From assembly GCF_024502345.1 (NCBI RefSeq), contig NZ_JALDNN010000001.1: a stretch of DNA of 64,000 nt. One strand, 5' to 3'. Below the pieces are notes generated by a model, which searched no databases, had not been told where the DNA came from, and was given only the letters and a program-made list of their open reading frames with translations. Of this stretch, positions 2,778 through 34,110 are shown piece by piece (position 1 is the stretch's first letter; each line of letters opens with the position of its first letter). Source of the stretch: Escherichia coli. Its GTDB lineage: Bacteria > Pseudomonadota > Gammaproteobacteria > Enterobacterales > Enterobacteriaceae. The position numbers and the translations under genes were made by a program.

Positions 2778-4421
2778 ATGTTGAAGCGCCTACTAAAAAG
2801 ACCCTCTTTGAATTTACTCGCCTGGCTATTGTTGGCCGCTTTTTATATCTCTATCTGCCTGAATATTGCCTTTTTTAAACAGGTGTTGCAGGCGCTGCCG
2901 CTGGACTCGCTGCATACCGTACTGGTTTTCTTGTCGATGCCGGTCGTCGCCTTCAGCGTGATTAATATTGTCCTGACACTAAGCTCTTTCTTATGGCTTA
3001 ATCGACCGCTGGCCTGCCTGTTTATTCTGGTTGGCGCGGCTGCACAATATTTCATAATGACTTACGGCATCGTCATCGACCGCTCGATGATTGCCAATAT
3101 TATTGATACCACTCCGGCAGAAAGCTATGCGCTGATGACACCGCAAATGTTATTAACGCTGGGATTCAGCGGCGTGCTTGCTGCGCTGATTGCCTGCTGG
3201 ATTAAAATCAAACCTGCCACCTCGCGTCTGCGCAGTGTTCTTTTCCGTGGAGCCAATATTCTGGTTTCTGTACTGCTGATTTTGCTGGTAGCCGCACTAT
3301 TTTATAAAGACTACGCCTCGTTGTTCCGCAACAACAAAGAGCTGGTGAAGTCCTTAAGCCCCTCTAACAGCATTGTTGCCAGCTGGTCATGGTACTCCCA
3401 TCAGCGACTGGCAAATCTGCCGCTGGTGCGAATTGGTGAAGACGCGCACCGCAACCCGTTAATGCAGAACGAAAAACGTAAAAATTTGACCATCCTGATT
3501 GTCGGCGAAACCTCGCGGGCGGAGAACTTCTCCCTCAACGGCTACCCGCGTGAAACTAACCCGCGGCTGGCGAAAGATAACGTGGTCTATTTCCCTAATA
3601 CCGCATCTTGCGGCACGGCAACGGCAGTTTCAGTACCGTGCATGTTCTCGGATATGCCGCGAGAGCACTACAAAGAAGAGCTGGCACAGCACCAGGAAGG
3701 CGTGCTGGATATCATTCAGCGAGCGGGCATCAACGTGCTGTGGAATGACAACGATGGCGGCTGTAAAGGTGCCTGCGACCGCGTGCCTCACCAGAACGTC
3801 ACCGCGCTGAATCTGCCTGATCAGTGCATCAACGGCGAATGCTATGACGAAGTGCTGTTCCACGGGCTGGAAGAGTACATCAATAACCTGCAGGGTGATG
3901 GCGTGATTGTCTTACACACCATCGGCAGCCACGGTCCGACCTATTACAACCGCTATCCGCCGCAGTTCAGGAAATTTACCCCAACCTGCGACACCAATGA
4001 GATCCAGACCTGTACCAAAGAGCAACTGGTGAACACTTACGACAACACGCTGGTTTACGTCGACTATATTGTTGATAAAGCGATTAATCTGCTGAAAGAA
4101 CATCAGGATAAATTTACCACCAGCCTGGTTTATCTTTCTGACCACGGTGAATCGTTAGGTGAAAATGGCATCTATCTGCACGGTCTGCCTTATGCCATCG
4201 CCCCGGATAGCCAAAAACAGGTGCCGATGCTGCTGTGGCTGTCGGAGGATTATCAAAAACGGTATCAGGTTGACCAGAACTGCCTGCAAAAACAGGCGCA
4301 AACGCAACACTATTCACAAGACAATTTATTCTCCACGCTATTGGGATTAACTGGCGTTGAGACGAAGTATTACCAGGCTGCGGATGATATTCTGCAAACT
4401 TGCAGGAGAGTGAGTGAATGA
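2778..4421 (+). CDS. eptA: Lipid A phosphoethanolamine transferase
   Basis: 547-aa product from ATG 2778 (tool ORF begins 15 codons earlier); N-terminal membrane region plus sulfatase-like domain; overlaps basR start by 4 nt. Confidence 0.92.
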
Positions 4422-5086
4422 AAATTCTGATTGTTGAAGACGATACGCTGTTATTGCAGGGACTGATTCTGGCGGCGCAAACCGAAGGCTACGCGTGCGA
4501 TGGCGTGACAACCGCGCGGATGGCGGAACAAAGCCTTGAGGCCGGTCATTACAGCCTGGTGGTACTGGATTTAGGGTTACCCGACGAAGATGGACTGCAT
4601 TTTCTCGCCCGTATCCGGCAGAAAAAATATACCCTGCCGGTACTGATCCTCACCGCTCGCGATACGCTGACCGACAAAATCGCCGGGCTGGATGTCGGTG
4701 CCGATGACTATCTGGTGAAGCCTTTTGCGCTGGAAGAGTTACATGCCCGTATCCGCGCCCTGCTACGACGCCATAATAATCAGGGCGAAAGTGAGCTGAT
4801 TGTTGGCAATCTGACGCTGAATATGGGTCGCCGTCAGGTATGGATGGGCGATGAAGAGTTGATTCTGACGCCCAAAGAATATGCTCTGCTGTCACGGTTA
4901 ATGCTCAAAGCAGGCAGTCCGGTGCATCGGGAAATTCTCTACAACGACATCTATAACTGGGACAATGAACCCTCGACCAACACCCTGGAAGTGCATATCC
5001 ACAATCTGCGCGACAAAGTGGGCAAAGCCCGTATCCGCACCGTGCGCGGCTTTGGCTATATGCTTGTCGCGAATGAGGAAAACTAA
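4418..5086 (+). CDS. basR: Two-component response regulator (OmpR family)
   Basis: 222-aa ORF with receiver domain and winged-helix C-terminus. Confidence 0.95.
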
Positions 5087-5095
5087 TTGAATCTG

Positions 5096-6187
5096 ATGCG
5101 TTTTCTGCGCCGACCAATATCGCTGCGCCAACGGCTGATATTGACCATCGGGGCCATTTTGTTGGTGTTTGAGCTGATCAGCGTCTTCTGGCTATGGCAT
5201 GAAAGTACCGAGCAGATTCAGCTGTTTGAGCAGGCGCTACGCGACAATCGCAACAACGATCGCCACATCATGCGTGAGATCCGCGAGGCGGTCGCCAGCC
5301 TGATTGTCCCCGGCGTCTTTATGGTCAGCCTGACGCTATTTATCTGCTATCAGGCGGTACGCCGCATCACCCGCCCGCTGGCGGAGCTGCAAAAAGAGCT
5401 GGAAGCGCGCACCGCCGACAACTTAACGCCCATTGCCATTCACAGCGCCACCCTCGAAATCGAAGCGGTGGTTTCAGCGTTAAACGATCTGGTCAGTCGC
5501 CTGACCAGCACGCTGGATAACGAAAGGTTGTTTACCGCTGACGTCGCGCACGAACTGCGAACGCCACTGGCGGGGGTACGTTTGCATCTGGAACTGCTGG
5601 CGAAAACGCATCACATTGATGTAGCACCGTTAGTGGCACGGCTTGATCAGATGATGGAGAGCGTCTCCCAGCTGCTGCAACTGGCGCGTGCCGGACAGTC
5701 ATTTTCTTCCGGTAATTATCAACATGTAAAACTGCTGGAAGATGTCATTCTCCCCTCGTATGACGAACTCAGTACCATGCTCGACCAGCGACAGCAAACC
5801 CTGCTATTGCCAGAGAGCACCGCCGACATCACCGTTCAGGGTGATGCAACCCTGCTGCGGATGTTATTGCGAAACCTGGTAGAAAACGCCCATCGTTACA
5901 GCCCGCAAGGCAGCAACATTATGATTAAGCTGCAAGAAGATGGCGGAGCGGTCATGGCAGTTGAAGATGAAGGACCAGGTATTGATGAGAGTAAATGCGG
6001 GGAGTTGAGTAAAGCGTTTGTACGTATGGACAGCCGTTATGGCGGGATTGGTCTGGGGTTAAGTATTGTCAGCCGCATTACACAGTTGCATCACGGGCAG
6101 TTTTTCCTGCAAAACCGGCAAGAGACTTCCGGCACGCGGGCCTGGGTACGGCTGAAGAAAGATCAGAACGTGGCAAACCAGATATAA
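5096..6187 (+). CDS. basS: Two-component sensor histidine kinase
   Basis: HisKA H-box (ADVAHELRTPL) and ATPase motifs; start at ATG 5096 or TTG 5087. Confidence 0.92.
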   Translation: MRFLRRPISLRQRLILTIGAILLVFELISVFWLWHESTEQIQLFEQALRDNRNNDRHIMREIREAVASLIVPGVFMVSLTLFICYQAVRRITRPLAELQKELEARTADNLTPIAIHSATLEIEAVVSALNDLVSRLTSTLDNERLFTADVAHELRTPLAGVRLHLELLAKTHHIDVAPLVARLDQMMESVSQLLQLARAGQSFSSGNYQHVKLLEDVILPSYDELSTMLDQRQQTLLLPESTADITVQGDATLLRMLLRNLVENAHRYSPQGSNIMIKLQEDGGAVMAVEDEGPGIDESKCGELSKAFVRMDSRYGGIGLGLSIVSRITQLHHGQFFLQNRQETSGTRAWVRLKKDQNVANQI

Positions 6188-6252
6188 AGAAAGCTGCTGA
6201 CCACCAGCACGCTGAACACGGTAGTTAAACTTTCATAAACACGGTTTTTCAT
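6163..6252 (-). CDS. pmrR: 29-aa small membrane protein PmrR, antisense-overlapping the basS 3' end
   Basis: Manual translation gives MKNRVYESLTTVFSVLVVSSFLYIWFATF; 25-nt convergent overlap with basS. Confidence 0.7.
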   Translation of the reverse strand: MKNRVYESLTTVFSVLVVSSFLYIWFATF

Positions 6253-6296
6253 TGCACTCTCCTCCGTTAACCTGGAGGAGAGTATGCGCGTCAGAG

Positions 6297-6313
6297 ATTA
6301 AGTGAACCTTAAG
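6297..6313 (-). promoter_or_regulatory. BasR/PmrA box upstream of pmrR
   Basis: On the minus strand reads CTTAAG-N5-CTTAAT, about 45 bp upstream of the pmrR ATG. Confidence 0.5.
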
Positions 6314-6322
6314 AGTTCAATT

Positions 6323-6351
6323 GGCCTGATAAGACAGCGTTACATCAGGCC
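6323..6351. repeat. REP-like palindrome between basS/pmrR and proP
   Basis: ggcctgat...atcaggcc inverted repeat. Confidence 0.5.
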
Positions 6352-6363
6352 ATCCGTTTCAGC

Positions 6364-7866
6364 TTATTCATCAATTCGCGGATGTTGCTGCACCAGGCGG
6401 GTACGTTTCGCCTGCAAATCGGCAATCTCGTGGTCAATATCATCGATTTTCTGCTCGATATTATCGTAATGCTCGACGAGAATTTCCTTCGCTTCCTGTA
6501 TATCTGACGCCGCCGGTGTTGCACCTTTCAACGGACGATTTGCCGTCTCTTTCATGGTTACGCCGGTGATTAAACCAACCACCGCCACTACCATCAGGTA
6601 ATAGGCTGGCATCATCAGATTCTGCGAGCTTTCGACCAGCCAGGCCGCCAGTGTTGGCGTCAGACCGGCAACCAGCACCGAAATATTAAATGCCGCCGCC
6701 AGCGCGCTGTAACGGATATGCGTCGGGAACATCGCTGGCAAGGTAGAAGCCATAACGCCCGTAAAGCAGTTAAGGATCACCGCCAGCATCAGTAACCCGG
6801 CAAAAATCAGGCCGATGACGTTACTGTTAATCAGAATAAACGCCGGGATCGCCAACACAAACAGTGCAACACTACCAAGTAGCACAAACGGACGACGGCC
6901 AAAACGGTCACTCAGCAAGCCCATCACCGGCTGGACAAACAGCATACCGATCATAATGGCGATAATAATCAGCACCCCGTGGTCTTCGGAGTAATGCAGG
7001 TTATGCGACAAATAACTCGGCATATAGGTCAGCAACATGTAGTAAGTCACGTTGGTGGCAATTACCAGACCAATACATGTCAACAGGCTGCGCCAGTATT
7101 TAGTGGCAATCTCTTTAAACGAGACTTTCGGGCCATCCTGCAAACCTTCGCGGTCGCCCTGTTCCAGTTTATCAACATGCTGCTGGAACGCCGGAGTTTC
7201 TTCCAGCGCATGGCGCAGGTAAAGCCCGATAATCCCTAACGGCAGAGCAATAAAGAACGGAATACGCCAGCCCCAGTCGAGGAAGTTCGCTTCGCCGACA
7301 ATGGTCGAAATTAACACCACCACGCCCGCACCCAGCACAAACCCGGCAATAGAACCGAAGTCCAGCCAGCTGCCCATAAAGCCACGTTTACGGTCAGGGG
7401 AGTATTCCGCAACAAATATCGACGCCCCGGTATATTCACCGCCGACCGAGAAACCTTGTGCCATCTTACAGATCAACAGCAGAATCGGTGCCCAAATACC
7501 AATCGTGTCGTAGGACGGTATTAAGCCAATACAGAACGTACTGATCGACATAATCACAATAGTGATAGCGAGGATCTTCTGGCGACCATATTTATCGCCC
7601 AACATACCAAAGAAGAGTCCGCCAAGCGGTCGAATCAGAAAGGGAACGGAGAAAGTGGCAAGTGCAGCAACCATCTGCACGCTGGGGTCAGCCCCCGGGA
7701 AAAAAACTTTACCTAATGCGTAAGCAACAAAACCATAAACACCAAAATCAAACCATTCCATTGCATTACCCAGTGATGCTGCGGTAATGGCTTTACGCAG
7801 TTTACCGTCATCAATAATGGTGACATCACGAAGGGTAATTGGTTTTACTTTTTTCCTTTTCAGCAT
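6364..7866 (-). CDS. proP: Proline/glycine betaine:H+ symporter (MFS osmosensor)
   Basis: 500-aa product from internal start MLKRKKVKPITLRD; MFS topology with C-terminal coiled-coil tail. Confidence 0.95.
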   Translation of the reverse strand: MLKRKKVKPITLRDVTIIDDGKLRKAITAASLGNAMEWFDFGVYGFVAYALGKVFFPGADPSVQMVAALATFSVPFLIRPLGGLFFGMLGDKYGRQKILAITIVIMSISTFCIGLIPSYDTIGIWAPILLLICKMAQGFSVGGEYTGASIFVAEYSPDRKRGFMGSWLDFGSIAGFVLGAGVVVLISTIVGEANFLDWGWRIPFFIALPLGIIGLYLRHALEETPAFQQHVDKLEQGDREGLQDGPKVSFKEIATKYWRSLLTCIGLVIATNVTYYMLLTYMPSYLSHNLHYSEDHGVLIIIAIMIGMLFVQPVMGLLSDRFGRRPFVLLGSVALFVLAIPAFILINSNVIGLIFAGLLMLAVILNCFTGVMASTLPAMFPTHIRYSALAAAFNISVLVAGLTPTLAAWLVESSQNLMMPAYYLMVVAVVGLITGVTMKETANRPLKGATPAASDIQEAKEILVEHYDNIEQKIDDIDHEIADLQAKRTRLVQQHPRIDE

Positions 7867-8129
7867 AGCTTTCCTCGCAGAGTTGGCCCATTTCCGCAAA
7901 CGCCAGAAAAATCAGCGCGACGGCCGCAAAAGGGGAGCGGGAATTGCAGGATGCAATCTCTGTAACAAGCGTAGCGGGTTTGCTTACACCCTCCGGTTAA
8001 GGAATGTACAATCAAACCAGTTGACGCCTGAATTGGGCAGTTAGTGACCTTTTTACCCTACCAGTGTTTAAATTTGTGATCAACTTCACACATGGATTTC
8101 GTTTAGGACTCATTGATGTAACTAATTAT

Positions 8130-9008
8130 TTACGCCAAATTTACAGAGAAGATTTCCTCGACCATTGCCCCCACCAAACGCTGCGCTGAACAGAGTCGTG
8201 GCATCCCCAGCGCGACAGTTTGCCAACGTTGGGTCACTGACCAGCAAACGGGTTGTTTATCTGCCGTGGTCCACTTTCCCAGCCAACTTAAAAAATCAGC
8301 ATGATCCCCGCCCGTCGGAACGGTCGAAGAGGCAAACCACTGATGGTAATAGTGACGCGTGGTCGGGGCCGCATTGATACTTTCTGCCAGATGTTGTGTC
8401 GCTTTCACGCGCAAATCACCCAGCAACAACGCCACCGCTTGCGGGCTTCCCAGACGGCAGGCATCGCCAAATGCCCCCCAGCGCAACTCTTCGAGAACGA
8501 TAAAACAGCGCCCAGGCAACGACCAGGCGTTATACGCCCCAGCACGCCAGCGGGTAAAAATTTGCTCGCTCTGTTCACCTGCCTGCACCAGTAGGCCCCG
8601 TTGCGTTAACGCCTTTTCCTTCCAGCGACAACGGGCTGAAAACCACTCATACAAGGCGGCAATTTGCTGGGGGAGCTCCGGGAAAGCAGAGTGCTGGCGG
8701 TGATCCATTTTTTGCAGCAGTGCCAGATGCTGCGCGATCTGCGTCAGTGCCAGATGACCGGGATCCAGCATCGACGCCAGTTTTTCCACCAATGTCAAAC
8801 GCAGGCTAAGCGGCGCATTTAACATTCCGCCGTTCGTCCATGTCTGAAGCTGCACGCGCGCAAGAAGTTCCTGCATCAGTCGTTCACGAAACTGCTGCTG
8901 ATGGGCTTGTGGAAGGCGGGCATCATCGCCCTGCGCCAGATCCACTAAAAAGCGCGGATGAACCGACTCCAGCACGCGACCGGGGCCGTCCAGTAACGTC
9001 TTGGTCAA
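8130..9008 (-). CDS. yjcZ: Uncharacterised protein co-transcribed with crfC
   Basis: 292-aa ORF overlapping the crfC stop by 4 nt. Confidence 0.85.
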   Translation of the reverse strand: MTKTLLDGPGRVLESVHPRFLVDLAQGDDARLPQAHQQQFRERLMQELLARVQLQTWTNGGMLNAPLSLRLTLVEKLASMLDPGHLALTQIAQHLALLQKMDHRQHSAFPELPQQIAALYEWFSARCRWKEKALTQRGLLVQAGEQSEQIFTRWRAGAYNAWSLPGRCFIVLEELRWGAFGDACRLGSPQAVALLLGDLRVKATQHLAESINAAPTTRHYYHQWFASSTVPTGGDHADFLSWLGKWTTADKQPVCWSVTQRWQTVALGMPRLCSAQRLVGAMVEEIFSVNLA

Positions 9009-11233
9009 TATCGTTCTGCCGTGAAAAGTGTTTGAATATCATCGCGTAACAGCTGAGCGTCGGTGTAAATCCAGCCGTGAGTCATCACAGTCTGCTGCAA
9101 TTGCTGTTGCATCAGCCTGACCACCGATTCATTTTGTTGACGCAGAGCCAGACTTTCGCGTAAACGCGTCTGTAATTCCGTCAAACATGAAGCGAACTCA
9201 GCGAAAAAAGTATTCATGCCTGCCGTAACAGATTCATCGACCTGCTCTGCCAGAACTTTAGCCATTTGTTGGCAATAGAGATCGACTTCTGCGCTTAATG
9301 CTCGTTGCAACACACTGTAATCAACCGTTTCTGTCGGGGATTTCTCATTTCCCCGTCCCCAGTCGGGCTGATTCAACCAGCGCGAAAAAGTCTCACGCAC
9401 AACGCCTAAACGCGTGCTCTGCTCGTCCGTTGCTTCCTGGCGCGAAATGACTTCACTGAACAGCTGGCGAGTGTTGAAGTGGGGAACTACGCCGTGAAAA
9501 ACAGGAAAATGAAACCCAGGACGAAACCCTGACTCGCTCAATTCTATTTTGATTTGTTGCTCAATGGGGCGAATAACATCGGTTAACACCCGGCAAAGGG
9601 TGGATTCCAGCTCGGCAAAACGCAGCGTAAAGTCGCGACTGATGGTGTTCTGCGCCGTCTGTAACAGTGTCTCACAGCGGGTACGAATCTCGCTTAATGA
9701 CCCCGAATCATCCTGAAACAAGGCGGCAAACTGCGCATTCAGCGCATCTTGCTGTTGACGCAGAAAGTGGTTGGCGGAGGTCAGGGCCAGCTCGATTTCA
9801 TGTTTAATCTCGCCGCTCACCTGCGCCTGATTGAGTTGCAATAGCTGCAAACTTTCTTCGACCTGATGGATATTTTGCCGCAATTGTTCACAAGCGACGT
9901 TTAACCCGTGCGCACGAAAATCCAGGTATTCCCGCGCCTGCTGCGCGTAATTCAACAGTTTATGCGCGGCAGATCGCAGAGCATACAACGAGGCGTTAGC
10001 GTAAGCGGCATGAAGCAACGCCTGAATTGGCTGGGCGAACAGCGAATCTTCCCACAACTGATCGGCAGCATGACGAATATGTTCGAGGTCCGCCAGATCG
10101 GCATGACGCCAGCGCCTGCCGAGCGCGGCATGGGCAAAATCTTCCACCCAGCGTTGTTGCTCTGGCGGTGGTAACTTACCGTTGTTGGCTAACTCATGGC
10201 GCGCCCGATTCGCCAGGTAGCCCCACATCGACGACACCGGAAATATCTGCTGTGGCGTAATACAGCCTTTCATCAGCGTCCCGGAAATCAGTGCCCGCAC
10301 CTGGTCGGCGTCGTCACTGTTACGATCCTGTTGATCGAACTTATTGACCAGCACATACAGCGGCACCGATTGCCCCACCGCCAAAATCGCCTCACGGACC
10401 TCTTCATCGGAGATCGATTTCAGTTGCGTATAATCCAGCACCGCCAGTACCGCCGAGGCGCGAGCCATCTGCTGGTTAAGCATTTTTTGCAGATGCGGTT
10501 GCCCGGCTTCATTTGGCCCGGGGGTATCCAGTAACGTCAACTGACCGGGATAACTCTCCAGCCCCGCCAGATGGACAAACTCCACTTCAATCACGGGAAT
10601 ATGCTCAATGGCGGCGTAAGCAGAAAAAGGAAAATCGACGTCCAGCGCCTTCGCCAGTCGCACTAAATCATTCAAACTTTTCAGACAATGAAAAATAGGC
10701 TGGGCACCCAGATAATATTTTTCGAAAGCGACGCCATTTTCGATCCGCTGCATAAGCGCACGCATATCTTTATCTATTTCCAGCACATCGGTCAGATGCT
10801 TAATATCGCAATCACGCAGGCGCTGTTGTAATTGTTGAATTAAACAATCGATTGGCGCGACATGTGAAAAATGCAGTACCGGTTCCTTTTGCCCGGGCGT
10901 ATGGCGAATAAGCGTTGGCAGCGCAGTCATAGGGCGATTGCGATTAGGCAGAACCTCCGTACCAACAATGGCATTAATGGTGGTTGATTTCCCTGCTTTC
11001 ATAGTACCGACAATCGCCAGCACCATTTCCAGTTGGGAAATTTTACGCAACTCATTATTCAGCATCGCGTGACGCTCGGCGATATTAGGCTGACTCCAGG
11101 GTAAAGCCAGTTGTGGCGCATCATCTCCGGGTACAGAGAGAGGCATTTTTTCCAGTAACTGCAACTGTTGGCGAGAAAGCTGTAACAGGCGTTCAGCCTC
11201 CTGACTTAACTCATACAGGGTCTGTGTGTACAT
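9005..11233 (-). CDS. crfC: Dynamin-like GTPase (clamp-binding sister replication fork colocalisation protein)
   Basis: 742-aa ORF with P-loop GTMKAGKSTT and coiled-coil-rich C-terminus. Confidence 0.9.
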   Translation of the reverse strand: MYTQTLYELSQEAERLLQLSRQQLQLLEKMPLSVPGDDAPQLALPWSQPNIAERHAMLNNELRKISQLEMVLAIVGTMKAGKSTTINAIVGTEVLPNRNRPMTALPTLIRHTPGQKEPVLHFSHVAPIDCLIQQLQQRLRDCDIKHLTDVLEIDKDMRALMQRIENGVAFEKYYLGAQPIFHCLKSLNDLVRLAKALDVDFPFSAYAAIEHIPVIEVEFVHLAGLESYPGQLTLLDTPGPNEAGQPHLQKMLNQQMARASAVLAVLDYTQLKSISDEEVREAILAVGQSVPLYVLVNKFDQQDRNSDDADQVRALISGTLMKGCITPQQIFPVSSMWGYLANRARHELANNGKLPPPEQQRWVEDFAHAALGRRWRHADLADLEHIRHAADQLWEDSLFAQPIQALLHAAYANASLYALRSAAHKLLNYAQQAREYLDFRAHGLNVACEQLRQNIHQVEESLQLLQLNQAQVSGEIKHEIELALTSANHFLRQQQDALNAQFAALFQDDSGSLSEIRTRCETLLQTAQNTISRDFTLRFAELESTLCRVLTDVIRPIEQQIKIELSESGFRPGFHFPVFHGVVPHFNTRQLFSEVISRQEATDEQSTRLGVVRETFSRWLNQPDWGRGNEKSPTETVDYSVLQRALSAEVDLYCQQMAKVLAEQVDESVTAGMNTFFAEFASCLTELQTRLRESLALRQQNESVVRLMQQQLQQTVMTHGWIYTDAQLLRDDIQTLFTAERY

Positions 11234-11634
11234 AGAAAATTCTTCCTTAAAGCAAATTTTGTTACTTTTATTTAGCCAGATTGTTTTTGAGTTCTGTTTT
11301 CGGCTTTTATAATTACTGCAAGAAATAATTTTATATTTAGCGTGTTGTTTTTTATTATAATAAATAACGTCTTCCGATACGTTTAAAACGTCAGAAAGAT
11401 AAAAATATCATGTGAATTAAAAAAAGAACAAGTAGAGCATTAACATTATCTTAAATAATAAATAGAGGCAAAAAGATTATTTTCTTTTTGCGTTCCCTTT
11501 CAAATGAAAACGATCGTCGTCTAAAATCAGCAGTACCCCCGACAAACTCAGGGATTTTGTGTATAATTGCGGCCTTTTTCGGCAATCTGCCGTTTTTTGG
11601 CGCTTTTGCCCTGCTGACTTTTGAGGAAATCCAC

Positions 11635-11987: not shown

Positions 11988-12165
<178 letters not shown>

Positions 12166-12227
12166 CCTCTCATCTGTATAAATTTCGAACTACACTTAAC
12201 TGGCTTCTCTTAACTGAGGTCACCATC

Positions 12228-12671
12228 ATGCCGTTAAGTCCCTACCTCTCTTTTGCCGGTAACTGTGCCGACGCAATTGCTTATTATCAACGTACGTTGG
12301 GCGCTGAACTGCTCTATAAAATCAGCTTCGGCGAAATGCCAAAATCAGCGCAGGACAGCGCCGAGAACTGCCCTTCCGGAATGCAATTTCCCGATACCGC
12401 CATCGCCCACGCCAATGTGCGCATTGCCGGAAGCGACATCATGATGAGCGATGCCATGCCGTCAGGAAAAGCCAGCTACTCCGGCTTTACGCTGGTGCTC
12501 GATTCGCAACAGGTCGAAGAAGGAAAACGCTGGTTTGACAATCTTGCCGCTAACGGAAAAATCGAAATGGCCTGGCAGGAAACTTTCTGGGCGCATGGCT
12601 TTGGCAAAGTCACCGATAAATTTGGCGTACCGTGGATGATTAATGTCGTCAAACAACAACCAACGCAATAA
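12228..12671 (+). CDS. yjdN: VOC/glyoxalase-like protein (PhnB-like)
   Basis: 147-aa ORF in the conserved position upstream of phnC. Confidence 0.85.
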   Translation: MPLSPYLSFAGNCADAIAYYQRTLGAELLYKISFGEMPKSAQDSAENCPSGMQFPDTAIAHANVRIAGSDIMMSDAMPSGKASYSGFTLVLDSQQVEEGKRWFDNLAANGKIEMAWQETFWAHGFGKVTDKFGVPWMINVVKQQPTQ

Positions 12672-12726
12672 TCCGCCGGGAGGCCCGCCCTCCCGCACTG
12701 TCATCGAATTCCCGTTAACTCTTCAT

Positions 12727-12759
12727 CTGTTAGTCACTTTTAATTAACCAAATCGTCAC
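12727..12759 (+). promoter_or_regulatory. Pho box (PhoB binding repeats) of the phnC promoter
   Basis: Three 11-bp-phased repeats (ctgttagTCAC, ttttaatTAAC, caaatcgTCAC) 45-77 bp upstream of phnC; an extra CTGTCAT heptamer at 12698. Confidence 0.55.
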
Positions 12760-12803
12760 AATAATCCGCCACGATGGAGCCACTTTTTTAGGGAGGCTGC
12801 ATC

Positions 12804-13592
12804 ATGCAAACGATTATCCGTGTCGAGAAGCTCGCCAAAACCTTCAATCAGCATCAGGCGCTGCATGCGGTTGATCTGAACATTCATCACGGTGAAATGG
12901 TGGCTCTGCTTGGGCCGTCGGGTTCCGGCAAATCCACCCTTTTACGTCATTTAAGCGGTTTGATTACCGGCGATAAATCCGCCGGTAGCCATATCGAGCT
13001 ACTGGGCCGCACTGTCCAGCGCGAAGGCCGCCTGGCCCGCGATATCCGCAAAAGCCGCGCCAACACCGGCTACATCTTCCAACAATTCAACCTGGTGAAC
13101 CGCCTGAGCGTACTGGAGAACGTGCTGATTGGCGCGCTCGGCAGCACGCCGTTCTGGCGCACCTGTTTTAGCTGGTTCACCGGCGAGCAGAAACAGCGCG
13201 CGTTACAGGCGCTGACCCGCGTTGGCATGGTGCATTTTACCCATCAGCGCGTTTCCACCCTCTCCGGCGGCCAGCAGCAGCGTGTGGCGATTGCCCGCGC
13301 GCTGATGCAGCAGGCGAAGGTGATTCTGGCCGATGAACCGATCGCCTCGCTGGACCCGGAATCGGCGCGCATCGTGATGGACACCCTGCGCGACATAAAC
13401 CAGAACGACGGCATCACCGTGGTCGTCACGCTGCATCAGGTGGATTACGCCCTGCGCTACTGCGAGCGCATCGTCGCCCTGCGTCAGGGGCACGTCTTCT
13501 ACGACGGCAGCAGCCAACAGTTTGATAACGAACGTTTTGACCATCTCTACCGCAGCATTAACCGCGTCGAAGAGAACGCGAAAGCTGCCTGA
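12804..13592 (+). CDS. phnC: Phosphonate ABC transporter ATP-binding protein
   Basis: Walker [13 protein letters not shown] signature LSGGQQQR, Walker B ILADEP. Confidence 0.95.
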
Positions 13593-13616
13593 CATCCCCA
13601 TCATTGAGGAAAACGA

Positions 13617-14633
13617 ATGAACGCTAAGATAATTGCCTCGCTGGCCTTCACCAGCATGTTCAGCCTCAGCACCCTGTTAACCCCGGCGCATGCCGAAGAG
13701 CAGGAAAAGGCGCTGAATTTCGGCATTATTTCAACGGAATCACAGCAAAACCTGAAACCGCAATGGACGCCGTTTTTACAGGATATGGAGAAGAAGCTGG
13801 GCGTGAAGGTCAACGCCTTCTTTGCCCCGGATTACGCGGGCATTATCCAGGGAATGCGCTTCAACAAAGTGGATATCGCCTGGTACGGCAACCTGTCGGC
13901 GATGGAAGCGGTGGATCGCGCCAACGGTCAGGTCTTCGCTCAGACCGTAGCGGCGGACGGATCGCCGGGTTACTGGAGCGTGTTGATCGTCAACAAAGAT
14001 AGCCCGATCAACAACCTGAACGATCTGCTGGCGAAGCGGAAAGATCTCACCTTCGGCAATGGCGATCCTAACTCCACCTCTGGCTTCCTCGTCCCCGGTT
14101 ACTACGTCTTTGCCAAAAACAATATCTCCGCTAACGACTTTAAGCGCACCGTCAACGCCGGGCATGAAACCAACGCGCTGGCCGTCGCCAACAAGCAGGT
14201 GGATGTTGCCACCAACAACACCGAAAACCTCGACAAGCTGAAAACCTCCGCGCCGGAGAAGTTGAAAGAACTGAAAGTGATCTGGAAGTCGCCGCTGATC
14301 CCAGGCGATCCGATCGTCTGGCGCAAAAATCTTTCCGAAACCACCAAAGACAAGATCTACGACTTCTTTATGAACTACGGCAAAACGCCGGAAGAAAAAG
14401 CGGTGCTGGAACGCCTGGGCTGGGCACCGTTTCGCGCTTCCAGCGACCTGCAACTGGTGCCGATTCGCCAGCTCGCGCTGTTTAAAGAGATGCAGGGCGT
14501 GAAAAGCAATAAAGGACTGAATGAGCAGGACAAGCTGGCAAAAACCACCGAGATTCAGGCGCAGCTGGATGACCTGGACCGCCTGAACAACGCGCTAAGC
14601 GCGATGAGTTCGGTGAGTAAAGCGGTGCAGTAA
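13617..14633 (+). CDS. phnD: Phosphonate ABC transporter periplasmic binding protein
   Basis: 338-aa ORF with signal peptide. Confidence 0.95.
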   Translation: MNAKIIASLAFTSMFSLSTLLTPAHAEEQEKALNFGIISTESQQNLKPQWTPFLQDMEKKLGVKVNAFFAPDYAGIIQGMRFNKVDIAWYGNLSAMEAVDRANGQVFAQTVAADGSPGYWSVLIVNKDSPINNLNDLLAKRKDLTFGNGDPNSTSGFLVPGYYVFAKNNISANDFKRTVNAGHETNALAVANKQVDVATNNTENLDKLKTSAPEKLKELKVIWKSPLIPGDPIVWRKNLSETTKDKIYDFFMNYGKTPEEKAVLERLGWAPFRASSDLQLVPIRQLALFKEMQGVKSNKGLNEQDKLAKTTEIQAQLDDLDRLNNALSAMSSVSKAVQ

Positions 14634-14635
14634 AT

Positions 14636-14728
14636 CGTAGGTCGGATAAGACGCCCCGGCGTCGCATCCGACAATGTGCAGGCGTTGATGCCGGATGCGG
14701 TGCAAGCACCTTATCCGGCCTACAGACC
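14636..14728. repeat. REP pair between phnD and phnE
   Basis: gtcggataagacg...gcgtcgcatccgac and gccggatgcgg...ccttatccggcc palindromic units. Confidence 0.75.
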
Positions 14729-14738
14729 GGAGCCAAAC

Positions 14739-15518
14739 ATGCAAACCATCACCATCGCCCCACCCAAGCGCAGCTGGTTCTCGCTTCTGAGCTGGGCCGT
14801 TGTACTCGCCGTGCTGGTCGTCTCGTGGCAGGGCGCGGAAATGGCCCCGCTCACGCTGATTAAAGACGGCGGCAACATGGCGACTTTCGCCGCCGACTTC
14901 TTCCCGCCTGATTACAGCCAGTGGCAGGATTACCTCACCGAAATGCTCGTCACGCTGCAAATCGCCGTCTGGGGCACGGCGCTGGCGGTGGTGCTCTCCA
15001 TCCCCTTCGGCCTGATGAGCGCCGAAAACCTGGTGCCGTGGTGGGTTTACCAGCCCGTTCGCCGCCTGATGGACGCCTGCCGCGCCATTAACGAAATGGT
15101 CTTCGCCATGCTGTTCGTGGTCGCCGTCGGCCTCGGCCCGTTCGCTGGCGTGTTGGCGCTGTTTATCCACACCACCGGCGTGCTCTCCAAACTGCTTTCC
15201 GAAGCGGTGGAAGCGATTGAACCCGGCCCGGTGGAAGGCATTCGCGCCACCGGCGCCAACAAGCTGGAAGAGATCCTTTACGGCGTGCTGCCACAGGTAA
15301 TGCCGCTGCTGATCTCCTACTCCCTCTATCGCTTCGAATCCAACGTCCGCTCGGCGACCGTCGTCGGCATGGTCGGTGCAGGCGGGATCGGCGTCACCCT
15401 GTGGGAAGCGATTCGCGGTTTCCAGTTCCAACAAACCTGCGCCCTGATGGTGCTTATCATCGTCACGGTCAGCCTGCTGGATTTCCTCTCTCAACGGTTG
15501 CGTAAGCACTTTATCTGA
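14739..15518 (+). CDS. phnE: Phosphonate ABC transporter permease (apparently intact)
   Basis: Continuous ~259-aa frame from MQTITIAPP to the stop; the tool ORF starts upstream inside the REP element. Confidence 0.88.
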
Positions 15519-15538
15519 TAAGCGAGGCATTGATATCT

Positions 15539-16264
15539 ATGCACTTGTCTACACATCCGACCAGCTACCCAACACGCTATCAGGAGATAGCCGCAAAACT
15601 TGAGCAGGAGCTTCGTCAACACTACCGCTGCGGCGACTATCTTCCCGCCGAGCAGCAACTGGCGGCGCGCTTTGAGGTGAACCGCCACACCCTGCGCCGC
15701 GCCATCGACCAACTGGTGGAAAAAGGCTGGGTACAGCGCCGTCAGGGCGTCGGCGTGCTGGTGCTGATGCGCCCGTTCGATTACCCGCTCAACGCCCAGG
15801 CGCGTTTTAGCCAGAACCTGCTGGATCAGGGCAGCCATCCCACCAGCGAAAAACTGCTGTCAGTATTGCGCCCGGCCTCCGGTCACGTCGCTGACGCGCT
15901 GGGGATCAAGGAGGGCGAGAACGTTATCCACCTGCGCACCCTGCGCCGGGTCAACGGCATCGCGCTCTGTTTAATCGACCACTACTTCGCGGACCTCACC
16001 CTCTGGCCGACGCTGCAACGCTTCGACAGCGGCTCGCTGCACGATTTTCTGCGCGAGCAAACCGGGATTGCACTGCGCCGCAGCCAGACACGGATCAGCG
16101 CCCGCCGCGCCCAGGCCAAAGAGTGCCAGCGTCTTGAAATCCCGAATATGTCGCCGCTGCTGTGCGTGCGCACCCTTAACCACCGTGACGGTGAAAGCAG
16201 CCCGGCGGAGTACTCCGTCAGCCTGACGCGCGCCGACATGATTGAATTCACTATGGAGCACTGA
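15539..16264 (+). CDS. phnF: GntR-family repressor of the phn operon
   Basis: N-terminal GntR HTH plus UTRA-like C-terminus; ATG at 15539. Confidence 0.9.
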   Translation: MHLSTHPTSYPTRYQEIAAKLEQELRQHYRCGDYLPAEQQLAARFEVNRHTLRRAIDQLVEKGWVQRRQGVGVLVLMRPFDYPLNAQARFSQNLLDQGSHPTSEKLLSVLRPASGHVADALGIKEGENVIHLRTLRRVNGIALCLIDHYFADLTLWPTLQRFDSGSLHDFLREQTGIALRRSQTRISARRAQAKECQRLEIPNMSPLLCVRTLNHRDGESSPAEYSVSLTRADMIEFTMEH

Positions 16265-16717
16265 ATGCACGCAGATACCGCGACCCGCCAGCACTGGATG
16301 TCCGTACTGGCACACAGCCAACCGGCAGAACTGGCAGCCCGCCTGAACGCGCTGAACATCACCGCCGACTATGAGGTGATCCGCGCCGCCGAAACCGGCC
16401 TGGTGCAGATTCAGGCGCGAATGGGCGGCACCGGCGAACGCTTTTTTGCCGGCGACGCCACGCTCACCCGCGCCGCCGTACGCCTGACTGACGGCACGCT
16501 CGGCTACAGCTGGGTGCTGGGGCGCGACAAACAGCACGCCGAACGCTGCGCGCTGATTGACGCGCTGATGCAGCAATCTCGCCACTTTCAAAACTTATCA
16601 GAAACGCTTATTGCCCCGCTGGACGCTGACCGTATGGCACGCATTGCCGCACGCCAGGCCGAAGTGAACGCCAGCCGGGTCGACTTCTTTACGATGGTTC
16701 GCGGAGACAACGCATGA
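16265..16717 (+). CDS. phnG: C-P lyase core complex subunit
   Basis: 150-aa ORF; operon position. Confidence 0.92.
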
Positions 16718-24161: not shown

Positions 24162-24479
24162 TCAATTTCTCCGCTGCTCTATTGCCGTAATCGCTTCCAC
24201 GCTTTGTTGATGACGACCGCCTTCGTACTGTGCGCCCAGCCACGCATCCACAATCATTTTTGCCAGTTCGAGGCCAACCACTCGTGAACCAAAAGCCAGT
24301 GCAACTTCACTGGCGTAATGCGGATAATCAGTGCGCTCTGACGACCTGGTTTCTTTATCAATCCCCTCACTCATTGACCATGAATAAAAGGCTGGCACAG
24401 CAACACAGAATCCTGCGGTGCCAGCGACATGACCGCCCATTGCTCCGGTACGTTTTTTAATAAAAAACACCGGTTGCAT
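24162..24479 (-). pseudogene. rpiB: Decayed remnant of ribose-5-phosphate isomerase B
   Basis: 105-codon ORF whose C-terminus (FGSRVVGLELAKMIVDAWLGAQYEGGRHQQ.VEAITAIEQRRN) and SSERTDYPHYAS segment match RpiB as I recall it (about 149 aa), with about 44 codons missing internally and a diverged N-terminus. Confidence 0.5.
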
Positions 24480-24731
24480 TGATTAATTGTGCTCAGTATT
24501 TGCCGAAGTACAATATATATAATAAATATATAAAACACCTCATATTATTTACAGAGATAATAAATTCGCGTACTTTTCCCTCTTCAGCACAAATGCCTAA
24601 TAAAATGGATCGTTCCGCTCACACTTCCACTTATTAAAGTCGCAATTTCCCAATTATGATAACGCCAGCTTTAAATGACGTATTTTGCATGGATTACATA
24701 TTTACGACATAAATGATAAATGGAGATTTAT

Positions 24732-31962: not shown

Positions 31963-34110
31963 ATGAAAAAAGTCGTCACGGTTTGCCCCTATTGCGCATC
32001 AGGTTGCAAAATCAACCTGGTCGTCGATAACGGCAAAATCGTCCGGGCGGAGGCAGCGCAGGGGAAAACCAACCAGGGTACCCTGTGTCTGAAGGGTTAT
32101 TATGGCTGGGATTTCATTAACGATACCCAGATCCTGACCCCGCGCCTGAAAACCCCCATGATCCGTCGCCAGCGTGGCGGCAAACTCGAACCTGTTTCCT
32201 GGGATGAGGCACTGAATTACGTTGCCGAGCGCCTGAGCGCCATCAAAGAGAAGTACGGTCCGGATGCCATCCAGACGACCGGCTCCTCGCGTGGTACGGG
32301 TAACGAAACCAACTATGTAATGCAAAAATTTGCGCGCGCCGTTATTGGTACCAATAACGTTGACTGCTGCGCTCGTGTCTGACACGGCCCATCGGTTGCA
32401 GGTCTGCACCAATCGGTCGGTAATGGCGCAATGAGCAATGCTATTAACGAAATTGATAATACCGATTTAGTGTTCGTTTTCGGGTACAACCCGGCGGATT
32501 CCCACCCAATCGTGGCGAATCACGTAATTAACGCTAAACGTAACGGGGCGAAAATTATCGTCTGCGATCCGCGCAAAATTGAAACCGCGCGCATTGCTGA
32601 CATGCACATTGCACTGAAAAACGGCTCGAACATCGCGCTGTTGAATGCGATGGGCCATGTCATTATTGAAGAAAATCTGTATGACAAAGCGTTCGTCGCT
32701 TCACGTACAGAAGGCTTTGAAGAGTATCGTAAAATCGTTGAAGGCTACACACCGGAGTCGGTTGAAGATATCACCGGCGTCAGCGCCAGTGAGATTCGTC
32801 AGGCGGCACGGATGTATGCCCAGGCGAAAAGCGCCGCCATCCTGTGGGGCATGGGTGTAACCCAGTTCTACCAGGGCGTGGAAACCGTGCGTTCTCTGAC
32901 CAGCCTCGCGATGCTGACCGGTAACCTCGGTAAGCCGTATGCGGGTGTAAACCCGGTTCGTGGTCAGAACAACGTGCAGGGTGCCTGCGATATGGGCGCG
33001 CTGCCGGATACGTATCCGGGATACCAGTACGTGAAAGATCCGGCTAACCGCGAGAAATTCGCCAAAGCCTGGGGCGTGGAAAGCCTGCCTGCTCATACCG
33101 GTTATCGCATCAGCGAGCTGCCGCACCGCGCAGCGCATGGCGAAGTGCGTGCCGCGTACATTATGGGCGAAGATCCGCTACAAACTGACGCGGAGCTGTC
33201 GGCAGTACGTAAAGCCTTTGAAGATCTGGAACTGGTCATCGTTCAGGACATCTTTATGACCAAAACCGCGTCGGCGGCGGATGTTATTTTACCGTCAACG
33301 TCGTGGGGCGAGCATGAAGGCGTGTTTACTGCGGCTGACCGTGGCTTCCAGCGTTTCTTCAAAGCAGTTGAACCGAAATGGGATCTGAAAACGGACTGGC
33401 AAATCATCAGTGAAATCGCCACCCGTATGGGTTATCCGATGCACTACAACAACACCCAGGAGATCTGGGATGAGTTGCGTCATCTGTGCCCGGATTTCTA
33501 CGGTGCGACTTACGAGAAAATGGGCGAACTGGGCTTCATTCAGTGGCCTTGCCGCGATACTTCAGATGCCGATCAGGGGACTTCTTATCTGTTTAAAGAG
33601 AAGTTTGATACCCCGAACGGTCTGGCGCAGTTCTTCACCTGCGACTGGGTAGCGCCAATCGACAAACTCACCGACGAGTACCCGATGGTACTGTCAACGG
33701 TGCGTGAAGTTGGTCACTACTCTTGCCGTTCGATGACCGGTAACTGTGCGGCACTGGCGGCGCTGGCTGATGAACCTGGCTACGCACAAATCAATACCGA
33801 AGACGCCAAACGTCTGGGTATTGAAGATGAGGCATTGGTTTGGGTGCACTCGCGTAAAGGCAAAATTATCACCCGTGCGCAGGTCAGCGATCGTCCGAAC
33901 AAAGGAGCGATTTACATGACCTACCAGTGGTGGATTGGTGCCTGTAACGAGCTGGTTACCGAAAACTTAAGCCCGATTACGAAAACGCCGGAATACAAAT
34001 ACTGCGCCGTGCGCGTCGAGCCGATCGCCGATCAGCGCGCCGCCGAGCAGTACGTGATTGACGAGTACAACAAGTTGAAAACTCGCCTGCGCGAAGCGGC
34101 ACTGGCGTAA
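31963..34110 (+). CDS. fdhF: Formate dehydrogenase H, selenocysteine-containing molybdoenzyme
   Basis: Two tool ORFs (31963..32382 and 32431..34110) are one frame joined through in-frame TGA at 32380-32382 (codon 140); N-terminal Cys cluster CPYCASGC. Confidence 0.93.
32380..32425 (+). other. UGA selenocysteine codon plus downstream SECIS hairpin
   Basis: In-frame TGA immediately followed by cacggcccatcggttgcaggtctgcaccaatcggtcgg, which can fold as a stem-loop. Confidence 0.7.

Follow-up and report, generated by a model that had tools for sequence, protein, structure and literature searches.

The stretch of Escherichia coli DNA analyzed here (64,000 nucleotides of contig NZ_JALDNN010000001.1, RefSeq assembly GCF_024502345.1; called the window below, at its full length) carries on its minus strand, at positions 8,130–11,233, the gene pair crfC-yjcZ. 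This locus is the already characterized E. coli core operon rdcA-rdcB, whose products are a dynamin-like GTPase and its partner protein. The genes and the sequence motifs on which their identification depends are as follows, with coordinates given on the window.

9005..11233, minus strand: crfC (synonyms yjdA and rdcA), encoding a dynamin-like GTPase of 742 aa; open reading frame (ORF) with an ATG start, matching NF007368 and Dynamin_N.
8130..9008, minus strand: yjcZ (synonym rdcB), encoding an all-helical partner of 292 aa; ORF with a TTG start, matching PF13990.
9005..9008, minus strand: TTGA overlap of 4 nt between the crfC stop and the yjcZ start, read from the sequence and pointing to translational coupling.
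10982..11008, minus strand: G1/P-loop GTMKAGKST, residues 76–84 with K82 (GTMKAGKSTT being residues 76–85), invariant in the two-gene and three-gene homologs described below.
10925..10927, minus strand: codon of the G2 catalytic threonine T103, within RNRPMTALP.
11099..11113, minus strand: beta-clamp-binding motif 41-QLALP, present in the translation (PQLALPW, residues 40–46); the motif was defined in PMC6374313.

Both ORFs are of full length in the window, and their boundaries are identical to the RefSeq gene boundaries in the closest complete genome (OW1E2). CrfC matches the NCBIfam equivalog NF007368 with 1590.9 bits (cut-off 1146; residues 1–742 against model positions 1–742) and the Pfam family Dynamin_N (PF00350) with 67.3 bits (cut-off 27; residues 72–277), and contains the G3 motif DTPGP and the G4 motif NKFD in addition to the P-loop. 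The original prediction, made from the sequence alone, of a 742-aa dynamin-like GTPase with the P-loop GTMKAGKSTT thus agrees with the ORF, the motifs and both profile matches. YjcZ matches Pfam PF13990 with 483 bits (cut-off 27; residues 21–287 against model positions 1–272) and carries the family hallmark LEELRWGxFG. RefSeq names the two genes crfC and rdcB, and the curated NCBI name of the first product is 'clamp-binding protein CrfC'. Of the 5426 complete E. coli genomes searched, 5419 contain the 3.7-kb crfC-yjcZ stretch, nearly always as a single copy between yjdM and proP; the closest of these genomes is 99.1% identical at the locus and most are 97.6–98.5% identical.

The 4-nt overlap with translational coupling, which had also been predicted, was recovered by inspection of the sequence, with the qualification that yjcZ starts with TTG and not with ATG. 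The crfC stop codon TGA occupies 9007..9005 and the yjcZ start codon TTG occupies 9008..9006, so that in the frame of crfC the junction is CGA TAT TGA, and in that of yjcZ it is TTG ACC AAG. The same −4 arrangement is present in 68 of the 80 homologous loci found by the genome scan described below. The start codon is TTG in Escherichia and ATG in the Citrobacter and Enterobacter orthologs, within the same ATGA/TTGA overlap. The N-terminus MTKTLLDGPGR follows the pattern MT.xLL(D/E)GPGR kept across genera, and since the N-terminus encoded from TTG is conserved in genera that use ATG, the TTG start of yjcZ appears to be real.

YjdA and YjcZ were renamed RdcA and RdcB by Pfiffer, Sarenko, Possling and Hengge (PLoS Genet 2019; PMC6510439), who reported that RdcB binds RdcA and that both are needed for activation of the diguanylate cyclase DgcE; the earlier statement that the role of YjcZ is not established is therefore outdated. 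Deletion of either rdcA or rdcB phenocopies deletion of dgcE in macrocolony matrix, CsgD, csgB::lacZ expression and cyclic di-GMP (c-di-GMP), and the effects are non-additive (PMC6510439). In two-hybrid assays RdcA contacts itself, RdcB and the MASE1 domain of DgcE, and RdcB does not bind DgcE (PMC6510439). Activation of DgcE requires GTP hydrolysis: the RdcA variant T103D, which binds GTP and cannot hydrolyze it, neither activates nor binds DgcE, and the variant K82A complements (PMC6510439). GTP hydrolysis and nucleotide-dependent self-assembly of RdcA have both been reported from experiments (PMC6510439 and works cited therein). Since RdcA locked in the GTP-bound state shows no activity, the authors proposed an inhibitory effect of GTP, whose drop in stationary phase would be the signal (PMC6510439). 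A genome-wide sorting screen of 2026 based on Förster resonance energy transfer (FRET) placed dgcE, rdcA and rdcB among the low-c-di-GMP mutants, which constitutes independent confirmation (PMC13031359).

According to this mechanism, the dynamin-like GTPase RdcA is soluble and associates both with itself and with RdcB, and the RdcA/RdcB complex docks on the membrane-embedded MASE1 domain of DgcE and activates this cyclase. In the published model, two DgcE molecules would be brought together, their PAS3 and GGDEF domains would dimerize, and the c-di-GMP produced would on the one hand switch on csgD, curli and cellulose via PdeR-DgcM-MlrA, and on the other hand slow flagellar rotation via YcgR. 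Falling GTP at stationary-phase entry would be the input signal. The gene dgcE lies outside the 64-kb window. The sequence features that the model requires at this locus are intact in the window, namely K82, T103, DTPGP, NKFD, the two full-length ORFs and the FliA promoter treated below. Compared with RdcA/RdcB of E. coli K-12, the window shares orthologous genes of the same lengths (742 and 292 aa), the neighbors yjdM (upstream) and proP (downstream), K82, T103, QLALP and the internal FliA promoter sequence; the differences are at the strain level of the sequence and none is functional. We consider it highly probable that the operon is the RdcA/RdcB system that activates DgcE, the biofilm-triggering enzyme, as published. 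The literature documents the genetic data with their epistasis, the two-hybrid contacts and the phenotypes of T103D and K82A. Two points weigh on the other side: the mechanism is based on genetic and two-hybrid data, not on reconstitution, and for the same protein another function has been claimed, in clamp binding and nucleoid partition.

If that other function were the main one, CrfC oligomers would bind the beta clamp via QLALP, keep sister replication forks together and determine where nucleoids lie, and YjcZ would be an accessory. The 41-QLALP motif is indeed present in CrfC of the window and the curated NCBI name fits a clamp role, and there are reports of clamp binding, of foci at nucleoid poles and of anucleate cells when crfC is deleted or carries Q41A (PMC6374313), a paper that also supports the earlier link of CrfC to replication-fork colocalization. 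However, conservation of Q41 is lost in most of the other genera in the orthologous clade (with, e.g., VLPLHF or HPLKF in its place), where the GTPase motifs are invariant. It has further been argued that the clamp interaction is GTP-independent, that the deletion has no effect on growth rate and that most of the in vivo data come from plasmid-expressed protein (PMC6510439), and yjcZ is not mentioned anywhere in the CrfC paper (PMC6374313). A mainly chromosomal role is therefore unlikely in our assessment. Hengge's group regards the clamp and nucleoid function as a possible moonlighting role (PMC6510439), and in our reading clamp binding by CrfC is best taken as a possible moonlighting role specific to Escherichia.

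The regulatory features of the DgcE-activating operon are located within crfC and in the region upstream of it.

9234..9260, minus strand: intragenic FliA (sigma-28) promoter in crfC, TAAAGTTC-N11-GTCGATGA, found by consensus scan (13/16) and driving yjcZ.
11234..11634, no strand assigned: AT-rich divergent intergenic region between crfC and yjdM, 401 bp, with 31.7% GC versus ~50–57% in genes.
11503..11476, minus strand: sigma-70-like site in the crfC-yjdM intergenic region, unverified.

The sigma-28 consensus TAAAGTTT-N11-GCCGATAA, with 16 scored positions, was scanned over the whole window, and the site at 9260..9234 is one of only three scoring at least 13. Its sequence in the window, TAAAGTTCTGGCAGAGCAGGTCGATGAA, is letter for letter the site '(yjdA)yjcZ', at which FliA occupancy is known from chromatin immunoprecipitation sequencing (PMC4183435). 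Fitzgerald et al. (2014) listed a decrease of yjcZ RNA from 52 to 1 in a fliA deletion (Table 2 of PMC4183435), and the activity of the intragenic promoter was confirmed in a later reporter study. The site lies 225 nt ahead of the yjcZ start, and the yjcZ transcript has a 5′ untranslated region of ~220 nt. Fifty-two other enterobacterial loci have the FliA site conserved at this position, with nearly fixed third-codon positions in the hexamers (T in 49/53 for GCT, C in 50/53 for GTC and T in 53/53 for GAT), whereas all four bases were seen at two four-fold sites in the spacer. In the deep-branching two-gene genera Cedecea, Siccibacter, Mangrovibacter and Franconibacter, the encoded peptide is similar, its codons differ and the FliA site is missing. 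This codon pattern, including the deep-branching genera that do not have the site, argues for selection on the intragenic promoter itself. Hence yjcZ is linked to crfC through translational coupling and, in addition, has a separate transcript that is under flagellar class-3 control. As rdcB is served by a sigma-28 promoter of its own within rdcA, the supply of RdcB possibly gates DgcE, and we infer that it may tie DgcE activation to flagellar gene expression.

The original prediction had taken the AT-rich upstream region as a sign of complex regulation, which holds insofar as the region is AT-rich and crfC-yjcZ is listed as H-NS-associated and as 2.6-fold upregulated on SlyA overexpression (PMC5797941, Table 2); the validated FliA promoter, however, lies inside crfC and had been missed. 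No FliA promoter scoring at least 11/16 was found in the AT-rich region 11234–11634. An upstream FliA promoter of crfC, predicted before, was judged incorrect by Fitzgerald et al. (PMC4183435), and our scan agrees. Beside the sigma-70-like site there is an inverted repeat at 11468–11491 with an AT-rich stem of 9 bp (GCAAAAAG...CTTTTTGC); such sites are no commoner here than in shuffled sequence. At the other end of the operon, proP follows ~260 bp beyond yjcZ, and no convincing intrinsic terminator was found between the two genes (7 terminator-like sites in the region versus 5.6 ± 3.1 in shuffled sequence).

Structure prediction places CrfC among the bacterial dynamin-like proteins. The AlphaFold2 (AF2) model, built on an alignment of 32 sequences (predicted local distance difference test, pLDDT, 77), suggests an alpha/beta G domain at ~69–350 and a helical stalk at ~400–741 with predicted helices of 40–60 residues each (400–443, 448–507, 513–567, 639–698 and 702–741). 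The earlier description of a long coiled-coil C-terminus is thus borne out as far as the long helices at 400–567 and 639–741 are concerned, whereas the fold is that of a dynamin stalk rather than a simple coiled coil. One further feature belongs here.

9320..9532, minus strand: low-confidence stalk tip, residues 568–638, at the position of the BDLP paddle; polar and the least confident part of the AF2 model, with pLDDT <50 at 581–588 and 596–636.

In Foldseek, the top matches of the CrfC model were BDLP (2j69/2j68) and IniA (6j72), with E-values of ~3e-13, and the matches overall included BDLP, IniA, SynDLP, mitofusins, Cj-DLP1/2 and LeoA (E-values 2e-13 to 5e-7); those to BDLP, IniA and SynDLP had a probability of 1.0 and template-modeling (TM) scores of 0.35–0.45. 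With BDLP of Nostoc punctiforme (2j68/2j69), IniA (6j72), SynDLP (7zw6), Cj-DLP1/2 (5owv) and LeoA (4aur), CrfC shares the G domain with G1–G4 and the long helical stalk, and sequence similarity to the solved bacterial dynamin-like proteins is located in the P-loop/G2 region. Its identity to them is ~14%; unlike them, CrfC has no hydrophobic paddle or transmembrane segment (maximum 19-residue Kyte-Doolittle mean 1.21), its partner is a non-GTPase helical protein instead of a second dynamin-like protein, and its known output is the activation of a signaling enzyme instead of membrane fusion or fission. A hydrophobic segment of transmembrane grade was found in neither CrfC nor YjcZ, which is consistent with the reported solubility of RdcA and RdcB (PMC6510439). 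The stalk-tip motifs GF..FP and DWGWE(D/S)Y are kept in two-gene and three-gene homologs, and E. coli has DWGRGNEKS in place of the latter. The AF2 model of YjcZ is all-alpha (pLDDT 70); its most conserved segment, ~253–277 with the sequence PVCWSVTQ..ALGMPRLCSA, is modeled with low confidence and would fit an interface that folds on binding.

The co-occurrence of the two genes was followed in homologous loci, as the original prediction had suggested. An exhaustive profile search gave 263 YjcZ-family clusters at 50% identity, and a genome scan with an alignment of 12 sequences, taking one genome per species, gave 80 loci; Salmonella and Klebsiella were absent from the YjcZ matches. A Dynamin_N GTPase gene stands directly 5′ of the YjcZ gene in all 80, and the GTPase and YjcZ trees are largely congruent. 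Sixty-two loci have two genes; they all belong to Enterobacteriaceae, are syntenic with yjdM and proP, and form one clade restricted to this family. In the other 18 loci, which are located outside Enterobacteriaceae or on islands, a third overlapping gene encodes a patatin phospholipase with intact GGGxxG, GxSxG and DG[GA] motifs; their hosts are Pseudomonas, Allochromatium, Thiodictyon, Pantoea, Erwinia, Budvicia, a metagenome-assembled genome (MAG) of Burkholderiales, Escherichia albertii and other MAGs. Across both classes the GTPase motifs do not vary. The seven distant YjcZ members sampled from metagenomes are likewise followed by a patatin gene, except for P0218, whose downstream gene is cut off. 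In one of the seven (metagenome contig L090, 6001–8630), a 532-aa protein combining an N-terminal DUF3944, a Ubiq_cyt_C_chap-like region and a YjcZ domain is encoded without a dynamin-like GTPase; a patatin gene comes directly after it, and parE and parC are upstream.

The three-gene form was also present in 2606 of the 5426 complete E. coli genomes (48%), 90–100% identical to the E. albertii copy and situated on tRNA-Ile-associated, CP4-like islands beside restriction-modification, tellurite-resistance (Ter) and CbtA/YeeU genes. Examples of the three-gene operon are at 3608–7973 of locus L007 and at 12001–16366 of loci L087 and L088 (E. coli O103:H2 12009 and strain 88_1577). RefSeq labels the middle gene 'diguanylate cyclase regulator RdcB family' at ~30% identity to RdcB, a label that probably over-transfers function to the island proteins. 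The dynamin/RdcB-like/patatin operons on islands of E. coli, Pseudomonas, Pantoea and others share with core rdcAB the first two families, their order and the 4-nt overlaps, at ~30–36% identity; they differ in having the patatin gene and a mobile-island location, neither of which core rdcAB has, and in being without a FliA promoter, which core rdcAB has. No three-gene cassette or patatin gene was detected in the window by tblastn with three patatin queries. Likewise, the yjcZ-proP interval of other genera revealed no patatin remnant; its gap of 1.6 kb contains an unrelated permease-like gene on the opposite strand.

These relatives bear on the suggestion that crfC-yjcZ itself is an anti-phage or membrane-repair system, comparable to DynA of Bacillus subtilis or to Eleos (LeoA/LeoBC). 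The paralogous dynamin-YjcZ-patatin cassettes lie on mobile islands near restriction-modification genes, and in a transcriptome paper of 2026 the three-gene operons were strongly induced in a lysogen and called putative dynamin defense systems (PMC12922286). CrfC also has weak matches to the LeoBC and LeoA models of PADLOC (E ~4e-6, ~24 bits). These matches are, however, generic, partial (LeoBC 24.3 bits, residues 231–566; LeoA 23.5 bits, residues 230–313) and far too weak to assign CrfC to these systems, and YjcZ has no PADLOC match. Eleos and the core pair have a dynamin-superfamily GTPase in common, but the profile matches between Eleos and crfC-yjcZ with its relatives are of 21–29 bits, a second dynamin-like gene is lacking, and YjcZ is unrelated to the Eleos components. 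The core locus is not a variable island: the order yjdM / crfC-yjcZ / proP is fixed in the 5419 E. coli genomes and across Enterobacteriaceae. Moreover, it has no patatin effector gene, neither of its proteins has a hydrophobic membrane-binding segment, and E. coli CrfC has lost the tip motif DWGWEDY that its relatives keep. A defense role for the core pair, as raised in the original prediction, is thus very improbable, and the idea applies at most to the paralogous island cassette. For the three-gene paralogs, PADLOC gave weak dynamin-generic and phospholipase-generic matches only, and our literature search found no functional study of the three-gene form.

Judged from gene content and sequence, core rdcAB looks like a patatin-less relative of the three-gene module. 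Because a patatin phospholipase gene always follows YjcZ in these relatives, we infer that RdcB may serve as an adaptor that links the GTPase to an output protein. A tentative extension, which we hold to be possible without favoring it, would derive rdcAB by domestication and without the patatin from a widespread and partly mobile GTPase-YjcZ-patatin module, in which YjcZ would connect an effector with the nucleotide state of the GTPase. This effector would then have been ancestrally a patatin cleaving membrane lipids, possibly in abortive infection or another conflict, and would be DgcE in the enterobacterial form. The evolutionary direction in this proposal is drawn from parsimony, taxonomic breadth and midpoint-rooted trees.

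Several observations concern other parts of the window. At 24299–24508, ~6.8 kb comprising most of rpiB and the alsRBACEK allose operon are absent relative to OW1E2, and the rpiB/als deletion junction is occupied by ~200 bp of unrelated AT-rich sequence. Two tandem elements of the repetitive extragenic palindromic (REP) type (11988–12064 and 12088–12164, plus strand; Rfam naRNA4, 105–107 bits) lie between yjdM and yjdN, where the closest genome carries ~200 bp more, and further naRNA4 copies were found at 14640, 34898, 35011 and 45615. Other Rfam matches above the gathering score were STnc630 (6156–6321, minus strand), downstream of proP and overlapping the end of pmrR/pmrB, sraL (52925–53065, plus strand) and the selenocysteine insertion sequence (SECIS) element of fdhF (32375–32429, plus strand).

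Taken as a whole, the locus is a characterized part of the c-di-GMP and biofilm switch of E. coli, and there is little new at the locus itself; genetic work of 2019 answered most of the question of what YjcZ does. What is new here is the pairing of YjcZ with a GTPase in 80 of 80 loci, the patatin in the relatives and the island form in ~48% of E. coli genomes. A related GTPase-YjcZ-patatin cassette occurs in roughly half of all E. coli strains and in many Pseudomonas, and the pairing of YjcZ with patatin provides a concrete handle on what YjcZ-type proteins do.

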